35,867 bases of DNA from a virus (lineage: Duplodnaviria > Heunggongvirae > Uroviricota > Caudoviricetes). Position 1 is the first letter of the stretch. Every line of letters begins with the position of its first letter. Shown one piece after another: positions 1 through 35,115 of this stretch. Where the stretch lies: the IMG/VR virus record IMGVR_UViG_2563366856_000003, positions 1 to 35,867 of that record; one strand, written 5' to 3'. The position numbers and the translations under genes were made by a program. Under the pieces are notes generated by a model that saw only the letters and a program-made list of their open reading frames with translations, was not told the origin of the DNA and ran no database searches.

Positions 1-1362
1 ATGTTTAAACCGGAACTCCTTTCCCCGGCGGGAACGCTGAAAAATATGCGTTACGCTTTCGCTTATGGCGCAGATGCTGTTTATGCGGGCCAGCCGCGTT
101 ACTCCCTGCGTGTGCGCAACAACGAATTCAACCACGAAAATCTTCAGCTCGGCATCAATGAAGCCCACGCACTGGGGAAAAAGTTTTATGTCGTGGTCAA
201 CATTGCACCGCACAACGCCAAGCTGAAAACCTTTATCCGTGACCTGAAACCGGTGGTGGAAATGGGGCCGGATGCGCTGATTATGTCCGATCCAGGGCTG
301 ATTATGCTGGTACGTGAGCACTTCCCGGAGATGCCAATCCACCTCTCGGTACAGGCTAACGCCGTAAACTGGGCGACGGTGAAATTCTGGCAGCAAATGG
401 GTCTGACCCGCGTGATCCTCTCTCGCGAACTGTCACTGGAAGAGATTGAAGAGATCCGCAATCAGGTGCCGGATATGGAGATCGAAATCTTCGTTCACGG
501 CGCGCTGTGCATGGCCTACTCCGGTCGCTGCCTGCTCTCTGGCTATATCAACAAGCGCGACCCGAACCAGGGCACCTGCACCAACGCCTGCCGCTGGGAG
601 TACAACGTCCAGGAAGGGAAAGAAGATGACGTTGGCAACATCGTACACAAGTACGAGCCGATTCCGGTGCAAAATGTTGAGCCGACGCTGGGTATCGGCG
701 CGCCAACCGACAAAGTGTTTATGATCGAAGAAGCCCAGCGTCCGGGCGAGTATATGACCGCGTTTGAAGATGAGCACGGCACTTACATCATGAACTCGAA
801 AGATCTGCGCGCCATCGCCCATGTTGAACGCCTGACCAAAATGGGCGTGCATTCGCTGAAAATCGAAGGCCGTACCAAATCTTTCTACTATTGCGCACGC
901 ACCGCGCAGGTTTACCGTAAAGCTATCGATGACGCCGCTGCGGGCAAACCGTTCGATACCAGCCTGCTGGAAACTCTGGAAGGTCTGGCGCATCGTGGCT
1001 ATACCGAAGGTTTCCTGCGTCGTCATACTCACGACGATTATCAGAACTACGAATACGGTTATTCAGTTTCTGACCGCCAGCAGTTTGTTGGTGAGTTTAC
1101 CGGTGAGCGCAAGGGGGACCTCGCGGCGGTAGCGGTGAAAAATAAATTCTCCGTTGGCGACAGCCTTGAGCTAATGACGCCGCAAGGCAACATTAACTTT
1201 ACCCTTGAGCACATGGAAAACGCCAAAGGTGAAGCTATGCCGGTCGCACCAGGCGATGGTTATACTGTGTGGCTCCCGGTGCCGCAGGATCTTGAGCTAA
1301 ATTACGCGCTGCTGATGCGTAATTTCTCCGGGGAAACCACGCGTAACCCCCACGGTAAGTGA
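1..1362 (+). CDS. yegQ: Peptidase U32 family protein YegQ (tRNA hydroxylation protein TrhP)
   Basis: 453-aa ORF starting at window base 1 (MFKPELLSPAGTLKNMRYAF...), recognised as E. coli YegQ; host flank upstream of cyaR. Confidence 0.9.
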   Translation: MFKPELLSPAGTLKNMRYAFAYGADAVYAGQPRYSLRVRNNEFNHENLQLGINEAHALGKKFYVVVNIAPHNAKLKTFIRDLKPVVEMGPDALIMSDPGLIMLVREHFPEMPIHLSVQANAVNWATVKFWQQMGLTRVILSRELSLEEIEEIRNQVPDMEIEIFVHGALCMAYSGRCLLSGYINKRDPNQGTCTNACRWEYNVQEGKEDDVGNIVHKYEPIPVQNVEPTLGIGAPTDKVFMIEEAQRPGEYMTAFEDEHGTYIMNSKDLRAIAHVERLTKMGVHSLKIEGRTKSFYYCARTAQVYRKAIDDAAAGKPFDTSLLETLEGLAHRGYTEGFLRRHTHDDYQNYEYGYSVSDRQQFVGEFTGERKGDLAAVAVKNKFSVGDSLELMTPQGNINFTLEHMENAKGEAMPVAPGDGYTVWLPVPQDLELNYALLMRNFSGETTRNPHGK

Positions 1363-1393
1363 TTAATTTCGATTATTTTTCCCGGATGGAAAA

Positions 1394-1415
1394 TTCTTAG
1401 AAACCGATCACATAC
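1394..1415 (+). promoter_or_regulatory. Putative CRP site and -10 element of the cyaR promoter
   Basis: Perfect TCACA half-site at 1408-1412 centred about -42 from the cyaR 5' end, with TATCAT -10 at 1434-1439; left half-site is poor; cyaR is known to be CRP-activated. Confidence 0.4.
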
Positions 1416-1446
1416 AGCTGCATTTATTAAGGTTATCATCCGTTTC

Positions 1447-1533
1447 GCTGAAAAACATAACCCATAAAATGCTAGCTGTACCAGGAACCACCTCCTTAGC
1501 CTGTGTAATCTCCCTTACACGGGCTTATTTTTT
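1447..1533 (+). ncRNA. cyaR: CyaR (RyeE) Hfq-dependent small RNA
   Basis: Sequence GCTGAAAAACATAACCCATAAAATGCTAGCTGTACCAGGAACCACCTCCTTAGCCTGTGTAATCTCCCTTACACGGGCTTATTTTTT matches recalled CyaR, ending in a stem-loop plus U-run. Confidence 0.85.
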
Positions 1534-7047: not shown

Positions 7048-8238
7048 TTAATTGCTGTTAACCGAGGTAACCAGACTTGCCAGGTATCTGGAAGTAATAC
7101 GCTGGCGCAGGGTCAGGTTTTCGAGAGGAGGCACCGGGGTATAGTCGTAGTCGATATACAGTTTTCCGGCCTTGAGGGTTTCCGCATCATTGGCTTCTTC
7201 ACTGAACCAGCATGTGCCATCCACGATATAACCGTTGTTTTTCAGTTCGCGGAATTTGGCATTAATGCCATCAATGATGTCACGAATCAGCGTTGCGGTA
7301 ATTGGCTTATCAATAGCCCACATGTGCGCCTCGGCCATCGTGTCGGCCAGTACCTGCGCGGTGCGGGTGTAGCTTTCAAAGAGGAACAGCGGGTCATCAG
7401 AGCAGGTACGGTTACCCCAGAAGCGGAAGCCGTCGCGGCGAATCAGCGTAGTGATGCCTGACTCGTTAAGCAGGTCAGCATCAGTGCCGGACTTCTGCAA
7501 ATCCCAGAATACAGAGGCGCTGATGCCGGTAACACCATTTACCCCGACGTTGGACAGCGTTTTATGCCAGCCCTGCTCCTGGTCGATTTTGGCACGCAGC
7601 CCCAGCGCACGGGCGGTGGCATACGCGGTGGCAGTGGTACTGGTAACCGTATCCCATGCGAGGAAATCCGGCCAGATGACCATCAGCTCACGCTGGCTGA
7701 AATTCTGACGGTAGGCTTTTGCCTCGGAAATGGTTTTACAGCCCCATGAGCTGATATACCCGAATGCATTCAGTTCCTGGCATACCGATGCCAGTGCGAC
7801 GGCAACCTCTTTGGTATCCAGCCCCGGCACACCAAGAATGCGCGGTTTAACGCCGGTAACCGACTCAGCCCCCATCAGGGCTTTCAGTCCGGTGTACTGA
7901 CCGTTTTCGTCAGTGGTGCCGATGATATTGGAAACGGTCTGCGCGAGTTTCGTTTCCTCGTCGTCGCCGGTGCCGTCTTCCACACGCACGACAACAGTGA
8001 CCGGTTTTGACTGGTCGGCGATAGCCTGCAACGACGCCGCCAGCGTGCCTTTTTTACCGGCCTTTGCAATTGCGCTCTGTACATTGGTAATCAGCACCGG
8101 TTTATTGACGGGGAAGGTTTCCGCATCCGCATCGCTGGCCGTGCAGACCATGCCGACAATGGCCGTGGATACGGTGGAAATGACGCGGGTGCCGTCGTTA
8201 ATCTCCAGCACCTGCACGCCGTGATGATAGTCACTCAT
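7048..8238 (-). CDS. FI: Tail sheath protein FI
   Basis: 396-aa product from internal ATG (MSDYHHGVQVLEINDGTRV...) of the 446-aa ORF; matches P2 gpFI start and length. Confidence 0.9.
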   Translation of the reverse strand: MSDYHHGVQVLEINDGTRVISTVSTAIVGMVCTASDADAETFPVNKPVLITNVQSAIAKAGKKGTLAASLQAIADQSKPVTVVVRVEDGTGDDEETKLAQTVSNIIGTTDENGQYTGLKALMGAESVTGVKPRILGVPGLDTKEVAVALASVCQELNAFGYISSWGCKTISEAKAYRQNFSQRELMVIWPDFLAWDTVTSTTATAYATARALGLRAKIDQEQGWHKTLSNVGVNGVTGISASVFWDLQKSGTDADLLNESGITTLIRRDGFRFWGNRTCSDDPLFLFESYTRTAQVLADTMAEAHMWAIDKPITATLIRDIIDGINAKFRELKNNGYIVDGTCWFSEEANDAETLKAGKLYIDYDYTPVPPLENLTLRQRITSRYLASLVTSVNSN

Positions 8239-8851
8239 CCGTTTAACTCCGTGGTTAATGGGTGCAACTATTTTCTGTTGTGCGAAGCATGAGACGCTAT
8301 TTGACCTGGCTGGGCAGTGGATGAAACAACAGATAAAGAAAAAGTGGGCAACTTGCCCGCCTCTATTTATTGCGGTATACCCAGCCATTCAGGATTTGTT
8401 GCTACTCATAATTACCTGCAAAGAAACAAAGAAAAGATGAAAATACAAGCTGTCTGGTACAAAGAAATCCATCAGACTTCCAACACCCCATACATGTGCC
8501 CCCACCACGGTATGCTGCTCCGCTTCCCTTTGCGGATATTTTCTATCCATCGATTTTCAGCCAGGATATGCACGTGCGCGATGAAGAATGTCACACTACT
8601 ATTGCCTTGTAAGCCCAGTTCCCGGTAAGAATAGCAACCAGCATCTGCGCTGCTACAGCACAAAGCGAGTGTATATTTGGGGGGAATATCCTTCATAAAC
8701 TGTTCGACGAAACCACGCTGTGGTTTCTCTTGTTATCAAACCGAGTGGCATTATCACTAGTTTTACTAAATTACCAACTTCACTGTGAATGATATGCATG
8801 ATAGAATCAGAAAATTAAATTATACAGATCTTAATCAATTCCGCGTTTTAT

Positions 8852-8877
8852 GCCCGTTGCTTCCACGGGCTTTTTTT
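8852..8877 (+). terminator. Intrinsic terminator (plus strand) inside the FI-H cargo island
   Basis: GCCCGT-TGCTTCC-ACGGGC hairpin followed by TTTTTTT. Confidence 0.5.
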
Positions 8878-8972
8878 AAAAAATCACCTAAAATAAATAA
8901 TTATATTCACTTTTATTCTAATACAGAATAGAATATGAAATCGTCAATTTGTACCATTAATTTTCAAATCTT

Positions 8973-9002
8973 CCCCGCCTTCGAGAGAATGCGGGGCTTT
9001 TT
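8973..9002 (+). terminator. Possible second intrinsic terminator (plus strand)
   Basis: CCCCGC / GCGGGG stem with a long 12-nt loop followed by CTTTTT; weaker than the first. Confidence 0.3.
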
Positions 9003-9150
9003 ACATGAGTACAACTTCACATTAACTATTTTTATACTTATAATTTGCTTTGCTTAAAAATGTTCAAAATGTACGCCAACATATTTAATTATGCTGATTT
9101 TATCACCAACAAAACTATCACCATGCAAACAATCCCTCGTGTTAGTTATA

Positions 9151-9166
9151 CTGCAATGCATTGCAG
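9151..9166. promoter_or_regulatory. 16-bp perfect palindrome upstream of the phase-variable ORF (candidate regulator binding site)
   Basis: CTGCAATGCATTGCAG is its own reverse complement; lies about 115 bp upstream of the ATG at 9281; a TATAAT hexamer is at 9212-9217. Confidence 0.35.
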
Positions 9167-9280
9167 CATGATGTGCTGATGACTTCATTAAATCATGTCA
9201 CAATGTTCAGATATAATGCTTCATGTTATGAGATAGCATTCTGAATATTCATAAACATTATTAACGTTAGAGGTTGCATA

Positions 9281-9515
<235 letters not shown>

Positions 9516-9544
<29 letters not shown>

Positions 9545-10649
9545 TTGCCCTTATTATACTATAAAAGGCAATACTATAAAAGGCAACACTAAAAAAGAAA
9601 ACATTTCATCTTCTGCTGTTTTAACAACAGCCCTGCATACTTCTCTTCTAAAAATCACAACGGTAATTAATGAAATTAATTCTATTTATCCCTTTGATGT
9701 CTCAGTTGTTATTCCGGTTCACAACCGAGAAACCCTTATTCTCGAATGCATTAAATCTTTAAACAATCAGACTATAGATAAAAATTGTTTTGAAGTTATT
9801 TTCATTGATGACTGTTCCACTGACAGGAGCATTGCCGCCATTGAATATAACATTTCGAGAGAAATAAATTATCGTATTATCCGTAGAGCAGTTGGTTCAG
9901 GGAATGCATCAGCGCCGCGAAATGAGGGAATAAAATCCGCAAAAGGTCGCTATGTGTTTTTCTTAGACTCTGATGATTCCATTCACTCTGACTTACTGTC
10001 CGATGGTATTCAGATGGCTTATAAAAACAATAGTGACATTGTATATTTCAAGCAGGTTTCCTCTACAGGGAGAGGGGTTCCTGTACGCCCATTTAAGGCA
10101 GACACGAATAAAGCAGATATTATAAAAAACCATCTTTTTAGATCATTAAAAATCTTCAAGTTCTTTAAAAGAGAGTTGCTAATCAATAACAACATCTTAT
10201 TTAACCCATCAATTTCAGTCTATGAGGATATGCTTTTTTCTTGCCAGAGCCTAACTGTAGCTAATACGATATCTATACTGGCAAGAAAGGGCTACTACTC
10301 TCTGAATCGCCATGAAGAACCACATCTATCTAAAACATCTTTCTCCATTAAACAAAGAGCCTTGGTATTACAAACAGGTTTGATTTATATCTTATCAAGC
10401 AATAAAAATGAAGCAGAAATAGTAAAAATGTTTAATGCATGGCTGGTTATTTGCGTTGAGCACTTGGCATCCATATTATCCAAAAAAAGTTTAACAACTA
10501 ATGAGAAGTCTCACGTTTTTAACTTGATACATAAATCACTCTTACCATATACAGGGCTTGTAAATGAGTCCCAAATATATCCCGCACAAAGAGAGCTTGT
10601 CAGTTGCTTAATCTGTGGAGATTATTCTTCTTTTTGCGAAAAAATATAA
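9516..10649 (+). CDS. Family 2 (GT-A fold) glycosyltransferase, probable surface-polysaccharide-modifying lysogenic-conversion gene
   Basis: 377-aa ORF with VVIPVHNRE...IFIDDCSTDRS and DSDD (DXD) motifs typical of GT2; the annotated start is a GTG immediately after the repeat with no usable RBS and there is no in-frame ATG upstream of the domain; AT-rich. Confidence 0.8.
9558..9602. repeat. 15-bp tandem repeat (about 2.5 copies) in the glycosyltransferase 5' region
   Basis: ACTATAAAAGGCAAT / ACTATAAAAGGCAAC / ACTAAAAAAGAAAAC, encoding TIKGN-TIKGN-TKKEN. Confidence 0.8.
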
Positions 10650-10688
10650 AAACACTTAACTACAGATACTCCTAACTTTGTATCTGAC

Positions 10689-10718
10689 GCCCCTCACCCT
10701 AAATTAAGGGTGAGGGGC
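10689..10718. other. Perfect 11-bp GC-rich hairpin between the convergent glycosyltransferase and tail-fibre genes
   Basis: GCCCCTCACCC-TAAATTA-GGGTGAGGGGC followed by A8 on plus strand; not a canonical terminator for either strand (U-run precedes the hairpin on the minus strand). Confidence 0.6.
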
Positions 10719-10860
10719 AAAAAAAATAATTATTTGATGTTATATTTATATGCCATCACATCTTTTAACTCCAGTTGTTACGGGGAGGACAGTGACTCGT
10801 ATCAACTAAAGTTTGATCTGTAGATAACACTATTTTAAGCAGATACTCATTAAGGCTTGT

Positions 10861-13719
10861 TTATTCTGAAGTCTCCAACTTCATCAAACGATGATTTAAG
10901 TCAACAAAGCGTTCCATTAACAAATCCACCTGGCTGACAACAGCACATAGACACCACCAGAGAAGCTCCTCTTTCCGGAAGCGATAACGGCTTCCTGCTT
11001 CGGTTGCAGGGCGAACAAGAACCCTTTCCGCCTGTCGGGTAAGCACACGAGTTGTCCCGCTCAACAGCTCCCCTTCATCCGAATAAATCGCTGGCTGAAC
11101 CGGAATATCTTCATACTCTTCCGGTATATCTTCGTACTGTGCCTCCTCCGCTTCCCACGAATCCAGACAAAATGCGCTGTATTTCCGCCAGTCCAGACCG
11201 TGTTTCTCCATCACCGCTATCGCGGCCTGGACTGTCGGCCCGGCGTGCAGACGCGCGTCCTCGCCCTCCTCCTCAATTCTCTGTAACCAGCGCCACACGC
11301 CCGGAAGCCGTGCTATTTCTGCAAATGCCGCGTTTTCGGCTGCCGTCGCATCGCGCGGTGTATCCTTTAACGTCGCATCCGACACAACGGTCGGCGAGTT
11401 GCAGAGATACACGCTCCGGAACGCTTTGTTGGGCGCACCCAGGTCGCTGGTATTGTTAACCGATGGCCGGAATGCACCGTTAATATCTGTATCCATCTGC
11501 ATGAATGCAGTGCCGTCACTACGGGCTGCAATTACATAAGCGTCAGCAGAATCGTCATAAATACCCAGATTCCCGGCTGTTGATACCTGGAAAGCTCCCG
11601 CCTTCAGCGTGGTGCTGATGGCCATGCGCTTCTGGGTTTCGTCATCCGATTTAATATTCACGCCCTGCAGGTATGCCACATTCCAGCGATTTGGCGATGA
11701 CCCCAGATTCATTGCCTTGTCCTGGTCGGGATGAAATGCCGGCGAGACCGGACTCAATAATACAGACCAGGTCTCACTGCCATCGGTACAATAAAGCCTT
11801 GTGCGCCCCGCCGACTGAGTATCGTTCATTGAGTAAAGGTTAATCCCGCCACCGCTCAACAAATCCACGTCAGCGCGTATTTCCAGACAATCGTGCACGG
11901 TGTTCAGTCGGTGTTTCCACTGAACGAAGCGGCCTGTGTATTCTCCGGTTCGGAACGCATCCCCGTACAAACGAAAAACAGCAGCAGAAGTGTCTGTATC
12001 CGGAGCCTCCTTTCTGACCTCAAATAACGGGCGATGCGAGCGCAGATTCTGCTCATAGGCTGCCACCTGGAAGTCTTCATTGGGTGACAGGGCAATATTT
12101 ACAGCATTGGGACTCAGAAAAAGGCTAGCATGGCTGTCAGGAAACGCCACGCCGGAGTCCACCAGATAGCCTGTGCCGTCGTAAGCCTCCACGGAAACCA
12201 CAGCTTTGCTGCGTTTTGTCGCCACGCCACACGTATAAGACTTCGTGGCATCATATTTCGTTGCAGCCGCCGTTCCATATGCTGTAGGCGTCCAGTAAGA
12301 TGGATTCACCGGGGAACGGCCAGAAAAATTTGTTGCACGTGCTGCAAAGTATGCCCCCTCAAAAGAAACCACATCGGCTGTCTGACACCAGAAATCCATA
12401 TCGAGCAGATACAGTTTTCCGTTATGAAGAGCCAGCCCTTCGGCTTCCTGCAAAACGGGATACCCCAGCTCTGCATTCCCCAGCATTTTCTGGCGGCCAT
12501 ACCTGGCACGAACGCCATCCACATTGAACTGTCTGACAACTTCGCCCGTTGACAGGTTATATACAACAATGCGGTGAGTCAGAAATACGCCTGTATAACC
12601 GTAATAAGCAAACAGATAATGACCATCGCTGGCCATCCCCTGAAATGCCTGCGACACCATTGACTGGGTGGACAGATAAATCCGGTGTTTAAACGTCAGA
12701 GAAGCGCGATCGAAAACATAAACTGTGCGGCGGTCATCCCTGTTGTAATGAAGATGGACGGCTTCATTACTTGACTGAACAATCAACAGGCTTCCGTCTA
12801 CCGACAATGCCACCGTTATAATTTCATCCCCGGTAAAAAAGTCAGAGGTGAAAATCTCCGTACGGGTGACATCTGTCAGACTGGTGTCAGCCCCATTCCA
12901 GTTGATGATATTCACACCCTTGCCGTCAGCGGTCGGGGTATACAGCATCACGCGACCGTCTTCACATACAGCCCCGATACTCTGGTGACCAATATCAGCG
13001 AAAACGGGAGAAAACGAAATGACCGTCGGGTTTTCGTTTTCTCCGTCAGGGTTAAATGTCGTTTCAACAATCCTTACGCCACCCGATACAGGCTGATGCA
13101 GAAACATTCTGGTTCCCTGCGGCGTATCACAGATACAGAACCCCTGACTCATATTATCCGCACCGTCAAAAATCCCGGCGTAGTCAATATCGTGGACAAC
13201 TTTATGCTGAAGAACCACATCATCAATGACAGTACGATGAAAACTGGATATGGCTTTATCGACGTAATCCTGCGTCGCCATCACCGTGCTGGCATCAATA
13301 CTCAGCTCAACAGACGCCACGTTACTGACAATAATAACCATGCGGCAGGTCTGCGCACGCCCGGAGCCTTCAGCCAGTTCAGGCTTATAGCTTTCTGCCA
13401 TGTTAGCGACCGCAATCAGTGTTCCGGCATCGTCATACAGACCAAGTTCACGCATCCAGAAGCCGCCCACTTCTGGCGGTACAACCAGTTCAGCCACGAT
13501 ATAGTTTTTATTCTTGTTATCCACGCTGACTTTATTCAGGGCGTGACGCCAGACCTCATGCACCAGTTTCGTCTGACCAGCATCCGGCACCGGCAATTTG
13601 CCATTACCGTCACCCACGGCCATTGCAGACAGGGTTACTTTTTTCCCGCCGGGGACAGTGGCGGCTGCCAGCTTTGCGGCTCCGGCAGTAGTGATAACGG
13701 TTTTAAATTTCGTGCTCAT
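10861..13719 (-). CDS. H: Tail fibre protein: gpH-like N-terminus, non-P2 central/receptor-binding region, candidate C-terminal intramolecular chaperone domain
   Basis: 952-aa ORF; first about 150 aa match P2 gpH (MSTKFKTVITTAGAAKLAAAT...GGFWMRELGLYDDAGTLIAVANMAESYKP), the rest is unrelated; C-terminal region contains an S-D-x-x-x-K motif (SDATLKD); no gpG-like assembly gene follows. Confidence 0.85.
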   Translation of the reverse strand: MSTKFKTVITTAGAAKLAAATVPGGKKVTLSAMAVGDGNGKLPVPDAGQTKLVHEVWRHALNKVSVDNKNKNYIVAELVVPPEVGGFWMRELGLYDDAGTLIAVANMAESYKPELAEGSGRAQTCRMVIIVSNVASVELSIDASTVMATQDYVDKAISSFHRTVIDDVVLQHKVVHDIDYAGIFDGADNMSQGFCICDTPQGTRMFLHQPVSGGVRIVETTFNPDGENENPTVISFSPVFADIGHQSIGAVCEDGRVMLYTPTADGKGVNIINWNGADTSLTDVTRTEIFTSDFFTGDEIITVALSVDGSLLIVQSSNEAVHLHYNRDDRRTVYVFDRASLTFKHRIYLSTQSMVSQAFQGMASDGHYLFAYYGYTGVFLTHRIVVYNLSTGEVVRQFNVDGVRARYGRQKMLGNAELGYPVLQEAEGLALHNGKLYLLDMDFWCQTADVVSFEGAYFAARATNFSGRSPVNPSYWTPTAYGTAAATKYDATKSYTCGVATKRSKAVVSVEAYDGTGYLVDSGVAFPDSHASLFLSPNAVNIALSPNEDFQVAAYEQNLRSHRPLFEVRKEAPDTDTSAAVFRLYGDAFRTGEYTGRFVQWKHRLNTVHDCLEIRADVDLLSGGGINLYSMNDTQSAGRTRLYCTDGSETWSVLLSPVSPAFHPDQDKAMNLGSSPNRWNVAYLQGVNIKSDDETQKRMAISTTLKAGAFQVSTAGNLGIYDDSADAYVIAARSDGTAFMQMDTDINGAFRPSVNNTSDLGAPNKAFRSVYLCNSPTVVSDATLKDTPRDATAAENAAFAEIARLPGVWRWLQRIEEEGEDARLHAGPTVQAAIAVMEKHGLDWRKYSAFCLDSWEAEEAQYEDIPEEYEDIPVQPAIYSDEGELLSGTTRVLTRQAERVLVRPATEAGSRYRFRKEELLWWCLCAVVSQVDLLMERFVDLNHRLMKLETSE

Positions 13720-16228: not shown

Positions 16229-17014
16229 ATGTTCAGTGATAATGTGACTAATGCGTGGTGGTTTATCTCTTTGTATCTATTTTTATTAATAGCATTAACA
16301 TTTATTACCTTTGGTAAAAGTAATCTTATGAGGTTTATTGCACATCATTTCAATTTTGAGTATTCAGACAGAAAGTTAAAAATGCTCGACAAAAAATGGC
16401 GCGACATTCAACTATTTAAAATAATTAACGGAATCAATGTATCAGGCATCGAAGATGTGAGAATGATACAGCAGGGGCTGATTGATGGAAAACTAAAAAC
16501 ATCGTATTTTTTTCTTACTCGCTTCTGGGGTGACATAACAAAACCACCACACATAATTAAAACAATAATTGTAATTCTGTCCAGCATTATTTATATTCTC
16601 TTCGCATGTTATATACACAACAAACAATCCGCTATAGTAAGAGATGCCATAGGCATACCATATAAAAATATGATGTACTATGTTTATAGTGACAAAGTTC
16701 TTTTATCCTTCAACAATAAAACAGTTGAATTCAATAAAACTTATAGCCTTGCCGATTGCAAGAGGCTACGAAACATATTTATAAAAGACACACTTCCTGA
16801 GATCGCCTGCAATAAGCTCTTACAGCTAAACGAGGAGGACTCGGAATGGTTAAGTCAGGAGATTAAAGATAATAACAGCCAAAAAAAAGCATTATTAATA
16901 ATATCCCTCATCTATTTCATTTCAGGTCTGGTTATATTCCTGTCATATACAAAATTCCTTTACGCCAATAAGAAGGTTGTAGAATACAAAGCATCAAATA
17001 AAAATCACTCATAA
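16229..17014 (+). CDS. Hypothetical membrane protein (three predicted TM helices), AT-rich moron opposite to the late genes
   Basis: 261-aa ORF with strong GGAGAG Shine-Dalgarno; hydrophobic segments at N-terminus, middle and C-terminus; lysine/asparagine-rich; occupies the P2 orf30 position between V and S. Confidence 0.7.
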   Translation: MFSDNVTNAWWFISLYLFLLIALTFITFGKSNLMRFIAHHFNFEYSDRKLKMLDKKWRDIQLFKIINGINVSGIEDVRMIQQGLIDGKLKTSYFFLTRFWGDITKPPHIIKTIIVILSSIIYILFACYIHNKQSAIVRDAIGIPYKNMMYYVYSDKVLLSFNNKTVEFNKTYSLADCKRLRNIFIKDTLPEIACNKLLQLNEEDSEWLSQEIKDNNSQKKALLIISLIYFISGLVIFLSYTKFLYANKKVVEYKASNKNHS

Positions 17015-17019
17015 GCCTC

Positions 17020-17056
17020 TAAACATTGAGCGACCAGCATGGCCGCTCAATGTTTA
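17020..17056. other. 13-bp perfect inverted repeat between the convergent moron and S genes
   Basis: TAAACATTGAGCG ... CGCTCAATGTTTA with 11-nt loop; no flanking U-run. Confidence 0.6.
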
Positions 17057-17085
17057 ATTGCGCATCAGCCTCTGCCTGGATAAAA

Positions 17086-17538
17086 CTAACGCTCAAGGTG
17101 AGCCAGGATAATCTCTTCAATCATCTGCACATCCTCACCGGTAAAGCCGAGCAGAGGACGCGCCGGATAATCAATTTTCTTACCGTCTTTCCGGGTTTCT
17201 TCCGACAGACCGAACTGATGCACACTGGCGATTTTCGGCGACTTCCCGCCGTAAAATTCCATTGATGCCTGTTCCGGGCTGGCGCGGATATGCAAAAAAC
17301 GACTGGTAATAAGTTTCGCAAACATTTTTCGCTTAACGCGACCGGTCTTTTTTCTGGCGCTCTGCTGCTGACGTGGCGCGTAGGGGGTGCCGTCCGGGGC
17401 TTTCTGTGCCATCACCCGACGCTGCTGACTCTGACGCAGACGTTTCGCCAGTTCGGCGCTCAGTCGCCGACGCCCTGACGGTGACAGCGATTCAATCAGC
17501 CCGGTCAGCCGGTCTTCAAAACGCTTAAACTCATTCAT
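17086..17538 (-). CDS. S: Tail completion protein S
   Basis: 150-aa ORF matching P2 gpS. Confidence 0.95.
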   Translation of the reverse strand: MNEFKRFEDRLTGLIESLSPSGRRRLSAELAKRLRQSQQRRVMAQKAPDGTPYAPRQQQSARKKTGRVKRKMFAKLITSRFLHIRASPEQASMEFYGGKSPKIASVHQFGLSEETRKDGKKIDYPARPLLGFTGEDVQMIEEIILAHLER

Positions 17539-17998
17539 CCCACTTACTCACCAGTTCGCCATTGATATAAAGCTCCATCGGGCGGGTGACCGGCTCCGGC
17601 GGCGGGGGTTCCGGGATATTCTTCACATGCAGCGCGCCGCCCACCTCACTGACCAGCGTGCGTTCGGTCAGCATCAGGCTGATACTGATATCAAAGCTGC
17701 TGTCATTGTTGATGTCTGCATAAAACGTGAAGCCTTTTTTCTGGCCTTCGTCGGTGGTCATGATGTCGGGCTGATTTTCCCGCAGCCACGCCAGCACCGG
17801 CACGATGAGCAGGTCAAAATCACCGGTAAAATCGGTCACAATGACATTGAGCGTGTAACGCTTTTCGAATGACAGCGACGTCGCCAGTGTGGAGGCAATA
17901 CTCCCGTTATCCACGAATATCCGAAGCATATCGGGGTTAGTTTTCAGCACCGTGACGGCATCAGTCAGCGCCCTGCGCAGGCTGTCGGGTTTGAGCAT
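17531..17998 (-). CDS. R: Tail completion protein R
   Basis: 155-aa ORF matching P2 gpR. Confidence 0.95.
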   Translation of the reverse strand: MLKPDSLRRALTDAVTVLKTNPDMLRIFVDNGSIASTLATSLSFEKRYTLNVIVTDFTGDFDLLIVPVLAWLRENQPDIMTTDEGQKKGFTFYADINNDSSFDISISLMLTERTLVSEVGGALHVKNIPEPPPPEPVTRPMELYINGELVSKWDE

Positions 17999-18251
17999 CG
18001 TTTTCGTCCTGACAGTGTTTAATCATTTTTACCTGGCTGGCACAGCGTGCCAGCGCGTTCTCAAGCTGCCGGATATCGGCACTTAAATCGCCGTTCGTCT
18101 GCGGGTCACTGCCCGGCATCGGGCAAAGACTCACTTTCGGGCAGGCGTTGTGGACAATCACTGGCGTCGGTGCAGGCGGGGCGCTGGTGCAACCGGCGCA
18201 CAGCATCAGGCAGGTCAGCGCCATACCAGCGGCGGAAATCTTCGTTTTCAT
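17961..18251 (-). CDS. lysC: Outer-membrane spanin lipoprotein LysC (Rz1-like), nested in lysB in a different frame
   Basis: Internal ATG at 18249-18251 gives MKTKISAAGMALTCLMLCAGC... with lipobox, proline-rich; embedded in the 3' part of lysB. Confidence 0.8.
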   Translation of the reverse strand: MKTKISAAGMALTCLMLCAGCTSAPPAPTPVIVHNACPKVSLCPMPGSDPQTNGDLSADIRQLENALARCASQVKMIKHCQDENDAQTRQPAQGAD

Positions 18252-18531
18252 TGAGTAATCTCGTGATGGTTTTCTCGCGCTGAGCTTCACGCTTCGCGGC
18301 GTTTTCCAGTTCCTGACGCAGTGCCACCTGCGCCAGCTCGTTTTTGTCTGCCCTGGTGAGCGCAACATGAAGCTGATTTTTCAGCATGGTGATGGTCGCC
18401 TGTTGCTCGCTGGCTACGTTGTTTGCCCTGTCCAGTGAGGTGCGCAGGCTGGCGTTTTTATGCTTCGCCAGAAACAGACCCGCCACCGCCAGCGATAACA
18501 ACACGACCAGCACAATCATCAGCCTTGACAT
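18106..18531 (-). CDS. lysB: Inner-membrane spanin LysB (Rz-like)
   Basis: 141-aa ORF with N-terminal TM helix and coiled coil; matches P2 LysB. Confidence 0.9.
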   Translation of the reverse strand: MSRLMIVLVVLLSLAVAGLFLAKHKNASLRTSLDRANNVASEQQATITMLKNQLHVALTRADKNELAQVALRQELENAAKREAQREKTITRLLNENEDFRRWYGADLPDAVRRLHQRPACTDASDCPQRLPESESLPDAGQ

Positions 18532-18944
18532 GGTTCCCGCCCCTCAAAACGCTGACGGCAGGCCGTACGTATCAGCCGGAAGAACACCGATGCCACGAGA
18601 TAAATCAGCGCGGTAAAAATCCACCCGGCAGCGACCAGCGAGATAAATGTCGCCACCATCACCACCAGAGCTACTGCCCGTCTGCGCCACGGCACCGGCT
18701 GCAAAAACAGCGACGTGACAATCTTCACGGCCAGCGATTCCGGCGGCAGCTCCCGTCCGTAGCGTTCCAGTACATACTCAGTGGCATACACACCGACACC
18801 ACCGGCAACCACACAGATAACCGTCGCCAGAATCGCCCAGGTGGCGACAAAACTGACGGCCACGCTCTGCGGGTAAATCAGGGACAGTGCCAGCATCAGC
18901 GCCAGCGACACGTTCAGCATCTGTGAAAGGGATAATTTCTTCAT
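18519..18944 (-). CDS. lysA: Lysis regulatory membrane protein LysA
   Basis: 141-aa multi-TM ORF matching P2 LysA. Confidence 0.9.
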   Translation of the reverse strand: MKKLSLSQMLNVSLALMLALSLIYPQSVAVSFVATWAILATVICVVAGGVGVYATEYVLERYGRELPPESLAVKIVTSLFLQPVPWRRRAVALVVMVATFISLVAAGWIFTALIYLVASVFFRLIRTACRQRFEGREPCQG

Positions 18945-18958
18945 GGTGTTTACTCCGT

Positions 18959-19456
18959 TTAAGCCGGTACGCCGCCAGCGGTACGCCAGACGGTGACCAG
19001 TTTTTCCAGTGAATGCTCACGCTGACCGTAACCGGCACCCGGCAGGGACGCCCAGATATTGCGACAGCGTGAAATGGCGCGCTCAATGCGTCCCGCCCGG
19101 ATGTCATCCAGTGCACCGCGTTCGCGGATCAACTGAATGGCGAGCCTGTCCTGTGACAACGGACTGAAATCCGGCAGGGCAAGCTGTTTGCGGTAGTGCG
19201 GCCAGAACAGGTAAAGCTGCTGATAGCGACCGGAGGCCGTGGATTTTTCACCGCGACGGTTAAACACCTTCGCCGGTCGGCCATGCGCGAACGGGTGGTC
19301 ACTGTAGTCGGTGAAAATTTCCGGCTTTCCGTCCAGTCCGGTGACTATCACGTCATAGCCCCGGTTTTTCGTCAGCGGATGATTCGCCGTCCCTTCGGAC
19401 ACGGCCAGCATGTCGAGAAAGGCGGCGATATTCTGATGCGTGTTAATTACCGGCAT
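18959..19456 (-). CDS. K: Endolysin K (lysozyme)
   Basis: 165-aa ORF matching P2 gpK. Confidence 0.95.
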   Translation of the reverse strand: MPVINTHQNIAAFLDMLAVSEGTANHPLTKNRGYDVIVTGLDGKPEIFTDYSDHPFAHGRPAKVFNRRGEKSTASGRYQQLYLFWPHYRKQLALPDFSPLSQDRLAIQLIRERGALDDIRAGRIERAISRCRNIWASLPGAGYGQREHSLEKLVTVWRTAGGVPA

Positions 19457-19737
19457 TACGGTTTCCCCCTGCCCTTAAAGCGGCGCTGAATGGCAATCTC
19501 AATCACCTGATAACCGGCGATACCCAGCATGGAGCCGATGCCGCACACCGCAGGCAGTGACAGGTCAGGAAACTGCACCAGAACAACACCGGCAACCATC
19601 GAGACAAAACCACCGAGCAACATGCGCCCGATAAACAGACGCGGGGTGATGGGTTCACCACCGGCAAGCACCTTGCCGACAACAATCAGCACCCCAATCA
19701 TGAAAAGCGACAGGACGCTTTTTTCTTCTGCTGTCAT
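19456..19737 (-). CDS. Y: Holin Y
   Basis: 93-aa ORF with TM helices matching P2 gpY. Confidence 0.95.
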   Translation of the reverse strand: MTAEEKSVLSLFMIGVLIVVGKVLAGGEPITPRLFIGRMLLGGFVSMVAGVVLVQFPDLSLPAVCGIGSMLGIAGYQVIEIAIQRRFKGRGKP

Positions 19738-19740
19738 GCG

Positions 19741-19944
19741 TTACTCCCACAGATTGACAGTTTCAGCCACGGGCGCGGTCTGAACGTCGGGCAGTTCGAC
19801 GGCGGTGCCGTGTGGCAGCACCGCGCCCAGTTCAGCCAGTCCCGGATTTGCGGCGAGCACGGTCTCGACCACGCCCTCAGTGCGCCCGTAATACCGGACA
19901 CAAATGGCGTCGAGCGTGTCGCCCTGTAGCGCAAAGGTCTTCAT
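19741..19944 (-). CDS. X: Tail protein X
   Basis: 67-aa product from internal ATG (MKTFALQGDTLDAICVRYYGRTEG...) matching P2 gpX. Confidence 0.9.
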   Translation of the reverse strand: MKTFALQGDTLDAICVRYYGRTEGVVETVLAANPGLAELGAVLPHGTAVELPDVQTAPVAETVNLWE

Positions 19945-26595: not shown

Positions 26596-27948
26596 TCAAC
26601 CCTCTGCCGAAATATTTCTTTGGAGAAATGCTCTAATTTTTTGCCTGAAAGCCTCACATTCATCAGGCTTTAACCTCTCAAGGTATTCAAAAACCCTAGT
26701 TTCATCCCAGCCGTTGTTATAGGTTTTCACTACCCCTCGATAAACTTGCTTATCAAGTTTATCGTTACCTCTAGTTGTAACTCTCGGGATCGATTCATCT
26801 TGGCCGTATGCTTGATAGAAATCCTTCTCAACGCTTTGGAAAGGTATGCATAAAATATTTTCACCTCGAGCATGCCTTTGACCTAATTGATCTCCGTCTA
26901 ACACTGAGATCACATTCTGTTGAGTCGTGAGAAAGCTCTCTCTCTCATTACGACGCATTAAATCAATGACATTAGTTCCTCCACCAACATATATTATTTT
27001 ATATTCGTAGAAGTAATCATTCCCAGGAGCATTAATTATATATTCTAAGAAATTTTGCAGAACTTCATCTTCAGTAAGAATGTACTTATCCCATCCTTTA
27101 AATCCAAAAAGCGTACTTTTTATATAATTATATGATCGATTTGTAATTGTAGTTCCAGCATCACCTTCGCACATATAGTACAATTCATCATCATTCAGCG
27201 TTTGCATTAAAGCAAGTGAATGTGTTGTGAATACAATATTCACCGAGTGTCTCTGACAATATTTCCTTAGCACTGCTATAAGATGGACTTGCGCCGAAGA
27301 GTCTAGTGATATATCTATCTCATCTATGACAATGAATTTTCTTTTGAGCTCAATCATTCTAAATAAATTCAAAATAAAATACTCACCCGAGCTAAAGTAA
27401 TCCTCCCTTATGTATGTTCCGTTCTCATTCAATCTGAAATAGAAAATTTCATTTTTTACAGAAAATGCTTTAAGATTATTGTAAGAAGAAGACTGATATA
27501 CCTCATTGAGTATATTTATCAAATCCTCGGGAACGCTATAGCTTTCAAACGCAATACTTTTTCTAAGTTCAGTATCAATTTTACTAAGTGTTGGGAAGTT
27601 ATTGAACCTCATTCCATGAGGAATGGGCAACTCGACATAAAGATTGGATTTTATATCTGCTGGAATTATTTGCTTAGTATCTATTACCTTCAAATTCTCA
27701 TCATAGACATATACTATATCTTGATCATTAATATTATATACTATACTACTGTCAGGATTGAATATATATCTAGAAGATGTCTTTATGAATGTATCTGCTG
27801 ATTGTAAATTTTTAATTGCTTTGATTAGCGTTGTCTTTCCAGCACCGTTCTTTCCTACAATGCAAGTCAGTTTATTTTCAGAAAGATCAATAGCAAATGA
27901 CATATGTTCAACATGCTGGATTTTCGAGATCTCAATGTTTATTTTCAT
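26596..27948 (-). CDS. OLD-like ABC-type ATPase with C-terminal Toprim-like region (candidate effector of RT-associated defence system)
   Basis: 450-aa ORF: Walker A GKNGAGKTT, signature-like SSGEYF, Walker B FIVIDEID, H-loop TTHS, then TEDE ... VLDGDQ resembling Toprim Glu and DxD; ATG one base after the RT stop; AT-rich. Confidence 0.8.
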   Translation of the reverse strand: MKINIEISKIQHVEHMSFAIDLSENKLTCIVGKNGAGKTTLIKAIKNLQSADTFIKTSSRYIFNPDSSIVYNINDQDIVYVYDENLKVIDTKQIIPADIKSNLYVELPIPHGMRFNNFPTLSKIDTELRKSIAFESYSVPEDLINILNEVYQSSSYNNLKAFSVKNEIFYFRLNENGTYIREDYFSSGEYFILNLFRMIELKRKFIVIDEIDISLDSSAQVHLIAVLRKYCQRHSVNIVFTTHSLALMQTLNDDELYYMCEGDAGTTITNRSYNYIKSTLFGFKGWDKYILTEDEVLQNFLEYIINAPGNDYFYEYKIIYVGGGTNVIDLMRRNERESFLTTQQNVISVLDGDQLGQRHARGENILCIPFQSVEKDFYQAYGQDESIPRVTTRGNDKLDKQVYRGVVKTYNNGWDETRVFEYLERLKPDECEAFRQKIRAFLQRNISAEG

Positions 27949-27949
27949 T

Positions 27950-28939
27950 TTAATTTACATTCTTGTAAAAAAGCATATCGACAATCGTATTTCCGTATTT
28001 TCTCTTTAGCTTATCGAGATAACTCTTATCAATTGTGTTTATATGATTCAAAAGACCAGAAACTGTATTAATGCCCTTTTCCAAGATCTCACTATCATTC
28101 AATCCGCTAGTTTTAACCTTAGGATCTTTTATTATAGAATCTATAAATTTATCTTTATCCGTTACATAAAAATGAATCAAATGCTCAAGCTTTCTTTTTA
28201 TTTTAATATCAACAGAGACTATCTGAGACGGTAAAATAACCATCCCCAGCAGCTTAATCTTACTGCCTTTTTTAATCAATTTAGTTTTTGCTGAGTTTAG
28301 TTTGAAATGTCCCTTCCCAAACTCACCCAGCAGGTCACTTACTACAGAATGAATATTCTCAAAGCCCTCATCATTTTCAGAGGAAATAATAATATCATCT
28401 GAATAGCGTGTGAATATATATTCATGGTTAATACAATATTGCTGCATCTCAACATCAAAGTCATATAAACATGCATTGCTGAAAGCTGGTGATGTCGGGA
28501 ACCCTACAGGCAACGAATTATCGATAATAATATAATCTAAAATTTTATCCAAGTGTATATTTAAATCGGAAATGGGAACGTTCGATAAGTTATCAACTAA
28601 AACTGATCGTGCATATTCACGAGTTATCGATGGGAAAAAGCTTTTAATATCAGTATTGAAGAATATCTTACTACAGGCGTGAAGTTTTACTGCATCATAA
28701 GTGCTGCTTCCTTTTCTATACGAAAACACAACATCCTTATTTACTTTCAAGTATGAAAGAACAAATTCATTTATGAATTTGTGATACTCTTTTAGTTTAG
28801 AAGTGGGCTCAGCAATTAACCTTTCATCAAAGGTTATAAATTTAGTTTGTTGAAATGGTTCAAACGAAAGAAAGTTTTGAAAGGAATCTTTTTCGAAGAA
28901 TGCAATATTGAAGGCTTTTTCGAGACTAAGGGGTTTCAT
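27950..28939 (-). CDS. Reverse transcriptase, retron-type size
   Basis: 329-aa ORF with RT motifs NTDIKSFFPSI (motif A-like), LPVGFPTSPAFSNACL (motif B'), YSDD (YxDD catalytic motif C); AT-rich; sits at the P2 old/tin position. Confidence 0.85.
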   Translation of the reverse strand: MKPLSLEKAFNIAFFEKDSFQNFLSFEPFQQTKFITFDERLIAEPTSKLKEYHKFINEFVLSYLKVNKDVVFSYRKGSSTYDAVKLHACSKIFFNTDIKSFFPSITREYARSVLVDNLSNVPISDLNIHLDKILDYIIIDNSLPVGFPTSPAFSNACLYDFDVEMQQYCINHEYIFTRYSDDIIISSENDEGFENIHSVVSDLLGEFGKGHFKLNSAKTKLIKKGSKIKLLGMVILPSQIVSVDIKIKRKLEHLIHFYVTDKDKFIDSIIKDPKVKTSGLNDSEILEKGINTVSGLLNHINTIDKSYLDKLKRKYGNTIVDMLFYKNVN

Positions 28940-29265
28940 CGTTGGCTGAGCTTTTGTTTTTTGAGTTGAATGGATTCTAAGATGAATGCTTTAACTCTCA
29001 GTCTTTCCTCACCCCAGACACCCTCCCTTCGCAGACTTTACTTCTTGTACATACCTTCTCTCGAAAGAGAAGGCAGTACAAGAGCAACACTATATAAAGG
29101 CCTGTAGAGGCCAACATTTATGACTGGAGATGCTCCTAGTCGTTGGCATAAAAACACTTTAAACCAGATTATGAGCATTTACAACATTTCAAGCCGTCGA
29201 ACGCAGCCCCAATCAGAAAAGAACTCACACGGCCATCATAACATCATGATTTAGATGGATATAAA
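28940..29265 (-). ncRNA. Candidate retron non-coding RNA (msr-msd) region upstream of the RT
   Basis: Non-coding 326 bp between A stop and RT start on the RT strand with several stable stem-loops: composite 15-bp stem 29044-29082 with 4-nt loop (UUCG on the RT strand), hairpins at 29099-29112 and 29110-29147; a1/a2 terminal repeats not identified. Confidence 0.45.
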
Positions 29266-34101: not shown

Positions 34102-35115
34102 ATGGCAATCAAAAAACTCGATGATGGTCGATATGAAGTGGACATCCGCCCTACTGGACGTAACGGAAAACGCATCCGTAGGAAGTTTGATAAGAAAAGC
34201 GAAGCTGTCGCTTTCGAAAAATACACGTTGTACAACCACCACAATAAAGAATGGCTATCAAAACCAACAGACAAACGACGTCTGTCGGAACTGACACAGA
34301 TCTGGTGGGATTTAAAGGGTAAACACGAAGAGCATGGGAAATCTAATCTTGGAAAAATTGAAATCTTCACAAAAATAACGAATGACCCATGCGCATTTCA
34401 AATCACGAAATCCCTTATCAGCCAGTACTGCGCCACCCGAAGAAGTCAGGGTATTAAACCTTCGAGTATCAATCGTGATTTAACATGTATTAGCGGCATG
34501 TTTACAGCCCTGATTGAAGCGGAGTTATTCTTTGGTGAGCACCCTATCAGAGGGACAAAGAGGCTTAAGGAGGAAAAACCAGAAACAGGCTATCTCACAC
34601 AGGAAGAAATTGCCTTACTGCTTGCAGCACTTGACGGCGACAATAAAAAGATTGCGATTCTTTGCCTGAGTACAGGAGCACGTTGGGGAGAAGCAGCTCG
34701 TTTGAAAGCAGAAAATATCATCCATAACCGCGTCACGTTTGTTAAAACGAAAACAAACAAACCACGCACCGTCCCGATTTCAGAGGCTGTTGCCAAAATG
34801 ATCGCGGATAACAAACGAGGTTTTTTATTCCCTGATGCTGATTACCCTCGCTTCAGACGAACAATGAAAGCAATAAAACCGGATTTGCCAATGGGGCAAG
34901 CCACACATGCACTAAGGCACAGCTTTGCCACTCATTTCATGATTAATGGAGGAAGTATTATCACGCTACAACGGATACTAGGTCACACGCGGATTGAGCA
35001 AACTATGGTTTACGCTCATTTTGCGCCAGAGTACCTTCAGGACGCCATTTCTCTTAATCCGCTAAGAGGTGGTACTGAGGCCGAGAGTGTCCACACAGTG
35101 TCCACAGTAGAGTAA
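34102..35115 (+). CDS. int: Tyrosine integrase
   Basis: 337-aa ORF matching P2 Int; catalytic-domain motifs (R...HxLRH...Y) present. Confidence 0.95.
   Translation: MAIKKLDDGRYEVDIRPTGRNGKRIRRKFDKKSEAVAFEKYTLYNHHNKEWLSKPTDKRRLSELTQIWWDLKGKHEEHGKSNLGKIEIFTKITNDPCAFQITKSLISQYCATRRSQGIKPSSINRDLTCISGMFTALIEAELFFGEHPIRGTKRLKEEKPETGYLTQEEIALLLAALDGDNKKIAILCLSTGARWGEAARLKAENIIHNRVTFVKTKTNKPRTVPISEAVAKMIADNKRGFLFPDADYPRFRRTMKAIKPDLPMGQATHALRHSFATHFMINGGSIITLQRILGHTRIEQTMVYAHFAPEYLQDAISLNPLRGGTEAESVHTVSTVE

Follow-up and report, generated by a model that had tools for sequence, protein, structure and literature searches.

Three gene architectures are distinguished among two-component spanins: the gene of the outer-membrane subunit (o-spanin) can be embedded in that of the inner-membrane subunit (i-spanin), as in lambda, it can overlap its partner and extend beyond it, as in P2, or the two genes can be separated, as in T4 (PMC6139136). 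The P2 proteins LysB and LysC are an experimentally tested overlapped spanin pair with the lipobox LCAG and with two plus four periplasmic cysteines (PMC6139136), and P2 is accordingly listed as 'ovl' (PMC6139136, supplementary table and Fig. 1b legend), a class that PMC3091744 also supports for this phage. Here we analysed a gene pair of the same type in a 35,867-nucleotide (nt) stretch of a Caudoviricetes record (IMGVR_UViG_2563366856_000003, positions 1 to 35,867), called the window in the following; all coordinates are window positions and the pair lies on the minus strand. With a probability of roughly 0.96, the locus encodes the two-component spanin LysB/LysC of a P2-like (Peduovirus) prophage. 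The original prediction, a reading of the bare sequence, had placed an embedded spanin pair at 17961-18531 without stating a strand, and this interval turned out to run exactly from the stop of lysC to the start of lysB on the minus strand. The pair is real but already known and ordinary.

The geometry of the two genes, their homology, the conserved motifs and the selection on both reading frames are direct observations on the DNA. The open alternative frame that holds lysC covers 17961..18368, with the P2-homologous ATG at 18251, and the offset of 280 nt between the two gene starts puts lysC into the +1 frame of lysB. From this ATG a product of 96 amino acids (aa) is read, which begins MKTKISAAGMALTCLMLCAGCTSAPPAPTPVIV..., or, with a slash at the predicted processing site, MKTKISAAGMALTCLMLCAG/CTSAPPAPTPV.... 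As had been predicted, the lipoprotein open reading frame (ORF) begins inside lysB in another frame and extends past it: of the 291 nt of lysC, 146 nt lie within lysB and 145 nt behind the lysB stop. The P2-type geometry is matched base for base (reference NC_001895: lysB 7922-8347, lysC 8202-8492), and the proposed comparison with P2 lysB/lysC gave, besides this geometry, protein identities of 96% for LysB and 95% for LysC. Because lysC reaches 145 nt past the lysB stop and into gene R, the pair belongs to the 'overlapped' and not to the 'embedded' class. Of the predicted embedded pair, the P2 spanin pair therefore stood, on the grounds of profile matches and identity, and the nesting did not; the note of the Prokaryotic Genome Annotation Pipeline (PGAP) on the pair also describes it as 'substantially overlapping although not fully embedded'.

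Profile hidden Markov models (HMMs) identified both proteins well above the curated cutoffs. LysB reached 171.9 bits with the NCBIfam equivalog TIGR03495 phage_LysB (cutoff 92.75, residues 7-140), and LysC reached 128.4 bits with the equivalog NF038368 P2_Rz1 (cutoff 27) as well as 63.5 bits with the Pfam family PF23793 LysC (cutoff 27). In PHROG, LysB was assigned to the Rz-like spanins of PHROG 89 (7e-60) and LysC to PHROG 456. Pfam alone returned just a sub-threshold DUF5937 match for LysB, whose placement needed the NCBIfam and PHROG libraries, and a sequence search of the PDB found no relative of LysB and one chance match for LysC (E = 0.24). The closest phage record is that of Yersinia phage P37, with 99.9% nucleotide identity.

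A long alternative frame does not by itself make a gene, and the window holds 77 ORFs of at least 90 aa in its six frames, so that the length of lysC alone is within chance. Such frames are thus frequent here, and several GenBank/RefSeq phage records omit lysC or give it as 159 nt; on this basis the lysC frame might be a chance ORF in GC-rich DNA with lysB as the only gene or, in a milder version, just the 52-aa piece might be real. We give hardly any credence to either version. In addition to the HMM scores, which far exceed the cutoffs, the conservation of the frame argues for a gene. Both genes were extracted from 12 relatives, from P2 and the Eganvirus group (Salmonella SW9, Erwinia EtG, Klebsiella RCIP0057) to Burkholderia PhiBP82.2 and Pseudomonas phiCTX, and in all 13 phages the lysC frame is open and +1 to lysB, with LysC identities of 37-99%. 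The distance from the lysC start to the lysB stop is 146-170 nt, and lysC runs on for 94-157 nt behind that stop. The lipobox cysteine is aligned in 13/13 and three periplasmic cysteines are found in 13/13, the fourth missing in phiCTX alone; phages of Burkholderia, Klebsiella and Pseudomonas keep the open frame, the start, the lipobox Cys and at least three further cysteines even at 37-45% identity.

The pattern of divergence between the P2 group and the Eganvirus group points in the same direction. In lysC codons 50-84, which overlap nothing, the divergence at codon positions 1, 2 and 3 is 0.23, 0.17 and 0.49, and this excess at position 3 is what normal coding in the lysC frame looks like. 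In lysB, the third-position divergence is 0.54 outside the overlap and drops to 0.24 inside, as expected because the lysB wobble sites are second positions of lysC there. Therefore, both frames are under purifying selection. The 52-aa form, for its part, would lack the signal peptide. The chance-ORF reading of lysC was rejected, being refuted by the HMM scores, the conservation and the codon-position pattern.

Several observations nevertheless weigh against assigning the locus to a P2-type spanin. The LysC lipobox LCAG/C matches none of three strict patterns, namely PROSITE PS51257, the DOLOP consensus and a third, stricter pattern ascribed to Kongari. The strength of the Shine-Dalgarno (SD) sequence of lysC is equalled or bettered by 35% of the ATGs in the window. 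A substitution in LysC, T10M, provides a second in-frame ATG at 18224, and PGAP uses it as the start. Finally, LysB shows no detectable similarity to the Rz protein of phage 21, taken as a stand-in for lambda Rz (BLASTP E = 0.32 over 12 residues). Two of these points concern properties on which the original prediction had made the case for lysC depend, a lipoprotein signal and a ribosome-binding site at the internal ATG. Applied strictly, the lipobox patterns and the SD measure would mislead, and the homology evidence is not overturned by them.

With respect to the lipobox, the announced string LMLCAGC is present at LysC residues 15-21, and the N-terminus combines a basic n-region (K2, K4), a hydrophobic h-region of 13 residues, A-G at positions -2/-1, Cys21 and a following Thr-Ser. 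The expected proline-rich periplasmic region was likewise found, with nine prolines in the 76 aa of mature LysC, eight of them among the first 30 residues, and besides Cys21 there are four periplasmic cysteines, namely C37, C43, C70 and C80. The strict patterns fail because position -3 is a cysteine. This failure is no refutation, since P2 LysC is documented to behave likewise and the aligned cysteine is conserved: P2 LysC has the identical lipobox 'LCAG', and for it LipoP cleavage between residues 20 and 21, an alternative between 17 and 18 and 'No hit by Prosite' are recorded (PMC6139136, supplement). In our alignment, Cys21 coincides with the lipobox Cys of the 12 homologues, and the distant relatives read TLSG/C, LLAG/C or TLCA/C, with Leu where LysC has the Cys at -3. 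Homology fixes Cys21 as the predicted lipidated residue, and it is conceivable, though unlikely, that the cysteine at -3 throughout the P2/Eganvirus clade permits an alternative processing at Cys18. With a relaxed lipoprotein-signal rule (Met, a basic residue, an uncharged stretch and then [GAS]-Cys), 2 ATG-started ORFs were obtained in the whole window, compared to a mean of 0.43 in composition-matched shuffles; the signal-like N-terminus of LysC exceeds chance.

The ribosome-binding site demanded for the internal ATG is present but weak. The predicted duplex of the GAGA motif with the anti-SD sequence has -3.0 kcal/mol here in comparison to -6.6 kcal/mol in P2, and it is no stronger than the site of a random ATG. 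The change from GAGG to GAGA is a single G-to-A exchange, which is synonymous in lysB (AGG to AGA, Arg) and common to phage P37, the latter without T10M. Since ORFs assigned by position and size to the P2 genes FI, J, S and T have equally weak values (-2.2 to -3.5 kcal/mol) and the relatives carry GAGG, the weak SD is not evidence against lysC. A different question is whether translation starts further downstream, either at ATG 18224 (87 aa, MALTCLMLCAGC...) or at ATG 18206 (81 aa, MLCAGC...). In favour of this, PGAP annotates the 87-aa form in identical Escherichia coli DNA and the 81-aa form in other alleles, the ATG at 18224 owes its existence to T10M alone, and this allele has a weak SD in front of 18251. 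We consider such a start very improbable. The SD sequences of the shorter forms are weaker still (-1.0 and -1.5 kcal/mol). Both forms are without the basic n-region and without most or all of the hydrophobic core and, with these elements lost, could not be exported or lipidated. In contrast, the position of the M-K/R-x-K/R start and the upstream GAGG/GGAG are kept in the 12 relatives, the 96-aa start is that of the P2 RefSeq record and of the SpaninDB table, and the NF038368 match begins already at residue 5 of the 96-aa protein. We therefore retain the start at 18251. It is conceivable, though unlikely, that the weak SD together with the T10M ATG lowers the amount of LysC or yields an export-defective, truncated LysC, and thereby a naturally attenuated o-spanin; if true, this would alter the spanin stoichiometry or the timing of lysis.

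The partner protein has the predicted build of an i-spanin, with a single N-terminal transmembrane domain followed by a helical periplasmic domain. The highest Kyte-Doolittle mean over 19 residues in LysB is 2.99, in the segment starting at residue 4, and for P2 LysB a non-periplasmic N-terminal part of 22 residues is given in Kongari's table (PMC6139136, supplement). A single-sequence AlphaFold2 (AF2) model of LysB consists of one long helix (residues 2-104, predicted local distance difference test 80-95) and a low-confidence tail that bears C120 and C126; the stretch shared with lysC corresponds to this tail and the end of the long helix.

Based on these features and on the work with P2 and lambda, we propose the following lysis mechanism. 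LysB would be a type II protein of the inner membrane with a transmembrane helix at its N-terminus, a long alpha-helix in the periplasm and a flexible tail that contains Cys, while LysC would be translated from the internal ATG in the +1 frame. From what is known of lipoprotein biogenesis and from the P2 and lambda work, the signal peptide should direct the export of LysC, Cys21 should receive the lipid and signal peptidase II should make the cut. Delivery of LysC to the outer membrane, into its inner leaflet, would then fall to the Lol system. The +2 rule of Lol sorting is established knowledge, and sorting of LysC to the outer membrane is expected because its mature N-terminus reads C-T-S, with Thr rather than Asp at +2 and with Ser at +3. 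The periplasmic ends of LysB and LysC would bind each other and form a bridge across the periplasm, which is probably stabilised by disulfides, as judged from P2 and lambda (PMC6139136, PMC3091744). Once the peptidoglycan has been cleared away by holin Y and endolysin K, the complexes would be able to move and change shape and, by analogy with both phages, fuse inner and outer membranes so that the phage is released. What we infer from P2 and lambda is thus the lipidation and sorting of LysC, the formation of the complex, its disulfide linkage and the fusion of the membranes.

A competing view takes LysB and LysC as regulators of lysis timing rather than as spanins that disrupt the outer membrane. 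It can draw on the P2 RefSeq notes and on many phage records, which read 'lysis regulatory protein; nonessential, affects timing of lysis'. However, it is as a timing phenotype that spanin defects show up in shaken cultures, since the spherical cells are broken by shear, and P2 is counted among the experimentally tested two-component spanins (PMC6139136). As the topology of the pair also fits a periplasm-spanning complex, the regulator view has next to no likelihood in our opinion, and the spanin assignment is kept. No Rz or Rz1 family was among the Pfam matches at E <= 0.01. In view of the lack of similarity between LysB and Rz, the mechanism is carried over by analogy and by the complementation reported for P2: Markov et al. 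are said to have found in 2004 that lysB and lysC complement lambda Rz/Rz1 nulls. LysB/LysC would accordingly work like Rz/Rz1 and yet stand outside that sequence family.

Table 1. Coordinates of the spanin locus, the lysis cassette and the prophage ends.
Feature	Position	Strand	Remarks
lysB, i-spanin (inner-membrane subunit)	18106..18531	(-)	ATG start, 141 aa
lysC, o-spanin (outer-membrane lipoprotein subunit)	17961..18251	(-)	96 aa, +1 frame of lysB
Dual-coding stretch, 146 nt	18106..18251	(-)	LysB residues 94-141 and LysC residues 1-49
Overlap of lysC 3' end with tail-completion gene R, 38 nt	17961..17998	(-)	R = 17531..17998, PF06891 GpR; as in P2
LysB N-terminal transmembrane segment, residues ~4-22 (LMIVLVVLLSLAVAGLFLA)	18466..18522	(-)	predicted from hydropathy and AF2 helix
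LysC signal peptide, residues 1-20	18192..18251	(-)	n-region MKTK; h-region ISAAGMALTCLML
LysC lipobox L-C-A-G/C	18189-18203	(-)	Cys21 = predicted lipidated residue
Weak Shine-Dalgarno GAGA	18259..18262	(-)	7 nt upstream of lysC ATG; GAGG in P2 and most relatives
Perfect 8-bp hairpin GCUGGCAC-GCU-GUGCCAGC, 3-nt loop, inside lysC	18036..18054	(-)	NC_001895 8399..8417
lysA	18519..18944	(-)	upstream lysis cassette (18519..19737)
Endolysin K	18959..19456	(-)	PHROG 90 (cassette assignments PHROG 90 endolysin, PHROG 162)
Holin Y	19456..19737	(-)	PF04550, 143.6 bits
U32 peptidase gene, host flank	1-1362		side observation, window 1-1530
CyaR/RyeE sRNA	1445-1530		Rfam 100.7 bits, right at prophage end
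Integrase gene	34102-35115		opposite prophage end

The surroundings of the pair are those of a lysis cassette, as expected for spanin genes: on the minus strand the order is Y-K-lysA-lysB-lysC, followed by the tail-completion genes R (PF06891) and S (PF05069), as in P2. Endolysin K had no Pfam-A or NCBIfam match at E <= 0.01 and is named a glycoside hydrolase family 24 protein by PGAP. The PHROG-derived RefSeq phage annotation labels lysA, a membrane protein that the literature treats as an antiholin, as 'endolysin'. Both are inconsistencies of naming only. Inside lysC lies a perfect hairpin with a stem of 8 base pairs (bp), for which the P2 annotation is 'putative transcription attenuator', with reference to the O operon. 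The window shares it in identical form with the P2 reference, P37 and E. coli AREA_502, whereas Salmonella SW9 has lost it. No U-tract follows the hairpin, and the 66 nt around it fold in an unremarkable way (z = -0.69). A terminator and promoter scan of 16900-19900 found no promoter-like site and passed over the hairpin because it lacks a U-tract, and Rfam gave no match in the lysis region.

The expectation that lysC is easily missed by ORF callers agrees well with the public records, in which the gene appears with 96, 87, 81 or 52 aa or is absent. The 96-aa form stands in the P2 RefSeq record and in SpaninDB, whereas no lysC is annotated in phage P37, YenM_31.17 and Klebsiella 4LV2017. In NC_070905, which is another P2 record, and in SW9, EtG, RCIP0057 and MHG54, a 159-nt piece of 52 aa starting with MPGSDP is given, which is without signal peptide. 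In E. coli genomes PGAP gives lysC its correct name but starts it too late, with 87 aa in DNA identical to the window and 81 aa in other alleles. The genes are widespread: a 701-nt stretch of the locus matches 83 phage records and 1,604 of 5,426 complete E. coli genomes (~30%). Just 22-26 of these ~1,600 matching E. coli records are at least 99% identical to this stretch, and at least 8 genomes are 100% identical and already have lysB and lysC annotated. Since P2 lysB/lysC is a textbook spanin pair, little is added biologically, and the practical value lies in annotation, as the true 96-aa lysC is often shortened to 87, 81 or 52 aa or omitted in public records. A shortened LysC would escape recognition as a lipoprotein, and strict lipobox patterns miss the clade on account of the Cys at -3.

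Overall, the window is a P2-like prophage, with a host U32 peptidase gene and the small RNA (sRNA) CyaR at one end and the integrase gene at the other. The peptidase gene is presumably yegQ-like and the region a known P2-like attachment region. Several cargo regions were seen besides the lysis genes. At 26596-28939 on the minus strand, next to a 326-nt gap (28940-29265) and in the P2 old/tin hotspot adjoining replication gene A, an AT-rich pair of genes (31-32% GC) encodes a reverse transcriptase (PADLOC RT_I-B, 365.9 bits) and, after it, an ATPase-Toprim protein (PADLOC ATPase-Toprim_I-B, 594.7 bits). The two form a type I-B retron-like defence system. The pair is absent from 50,697 phage records, in which just an 88-nt flank was matched, and occurs in 10 of 5,426 complete E. 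coli genomes. Rfam gave no msr match and the inverted repeats were not conclusive, so that the msr/msd RNA to be expected in front of the reverse transcriptase gene was not located.

A second AT-rich island (8400-10860, ~36% GC), where P2 has Z/fun, separates the tail-fibre gene from FI. It includes an ORF (9516-10649, plus strand, opposite to the tail genes) for a family-2 glycosyltransferase (PF00535, 100 bits), which could be a moron that modifies surface polysaccharides, and 30 of 5,426 E. coli genomes have the island, among them derivatives of E. coli B and C. The neighbouring tail-fibre protein H (10861-13719, minus strand, 952 aa) ends in a Peptidase_S74 intramolecular-chaperone domain (residues 780-842), and between H and the island no separate G-like tail-fibre assembly ORF was evident. 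At the P2 orf30 position between S and V, a further island of 36% GC carries a 261-aa ORF on the opposite strand (16229-17014, plus), which belongs to PHROG 2407 (unknown function, 477.7 bits) and received no Pfam, NCBIfam or PADLOC assignment; hydrophobic stretches are visible by eye in its translation.

Among the described systems, P2 LysB/LysC is the closest. The two pairs share protein lengths of 141 and 96 aa, the +1 frame, the overlaps of 146 nt and 38 nt, the order of the cassette, the LCAG/CTS processing site, the two periplasmic cysteines in LysB and four in LysC and the identical hairpin inside lysC. They differ by five substitutions in LysC (R2K, F6S, T10M, V11A, P34H) and six in LysB, by the SD of lysC, GAGG there and GAGA here, and by the extra in-frame ATG that arises from T10M. 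The mature N-terminus C-T-S is also that of Rz1 of lambda. The Rz1 gene, however, is fully contained in Rz, whereas lysC continues for 145 nt past lysB, and mature LysC is larger (76 aa versus 40), less proline-rich and has four periplasmic cysteines instead of one. In common with Rz-Rz1 of lambda and phage 21, the pair combines a predicted type II protein of the inner membrane, whose periplasmic domain is helical, with a small, proline-rich putative outer-membrane lipoprotein, which is encoded in the +1 frame starting inside the partner gene, and it would act in the last step of lysis (PMC6139136). More distant are T4 PseT.3/PseT.2, a separated pair with non-overlapping genes, and T1 gp11, a unimolecular spanin consisting of a single protein; likened here by description and not by sequence, they belong to the same functional class of periplasm-spanning, lipoprotein-anchored disruption of the outer membrane (PMC6139136).

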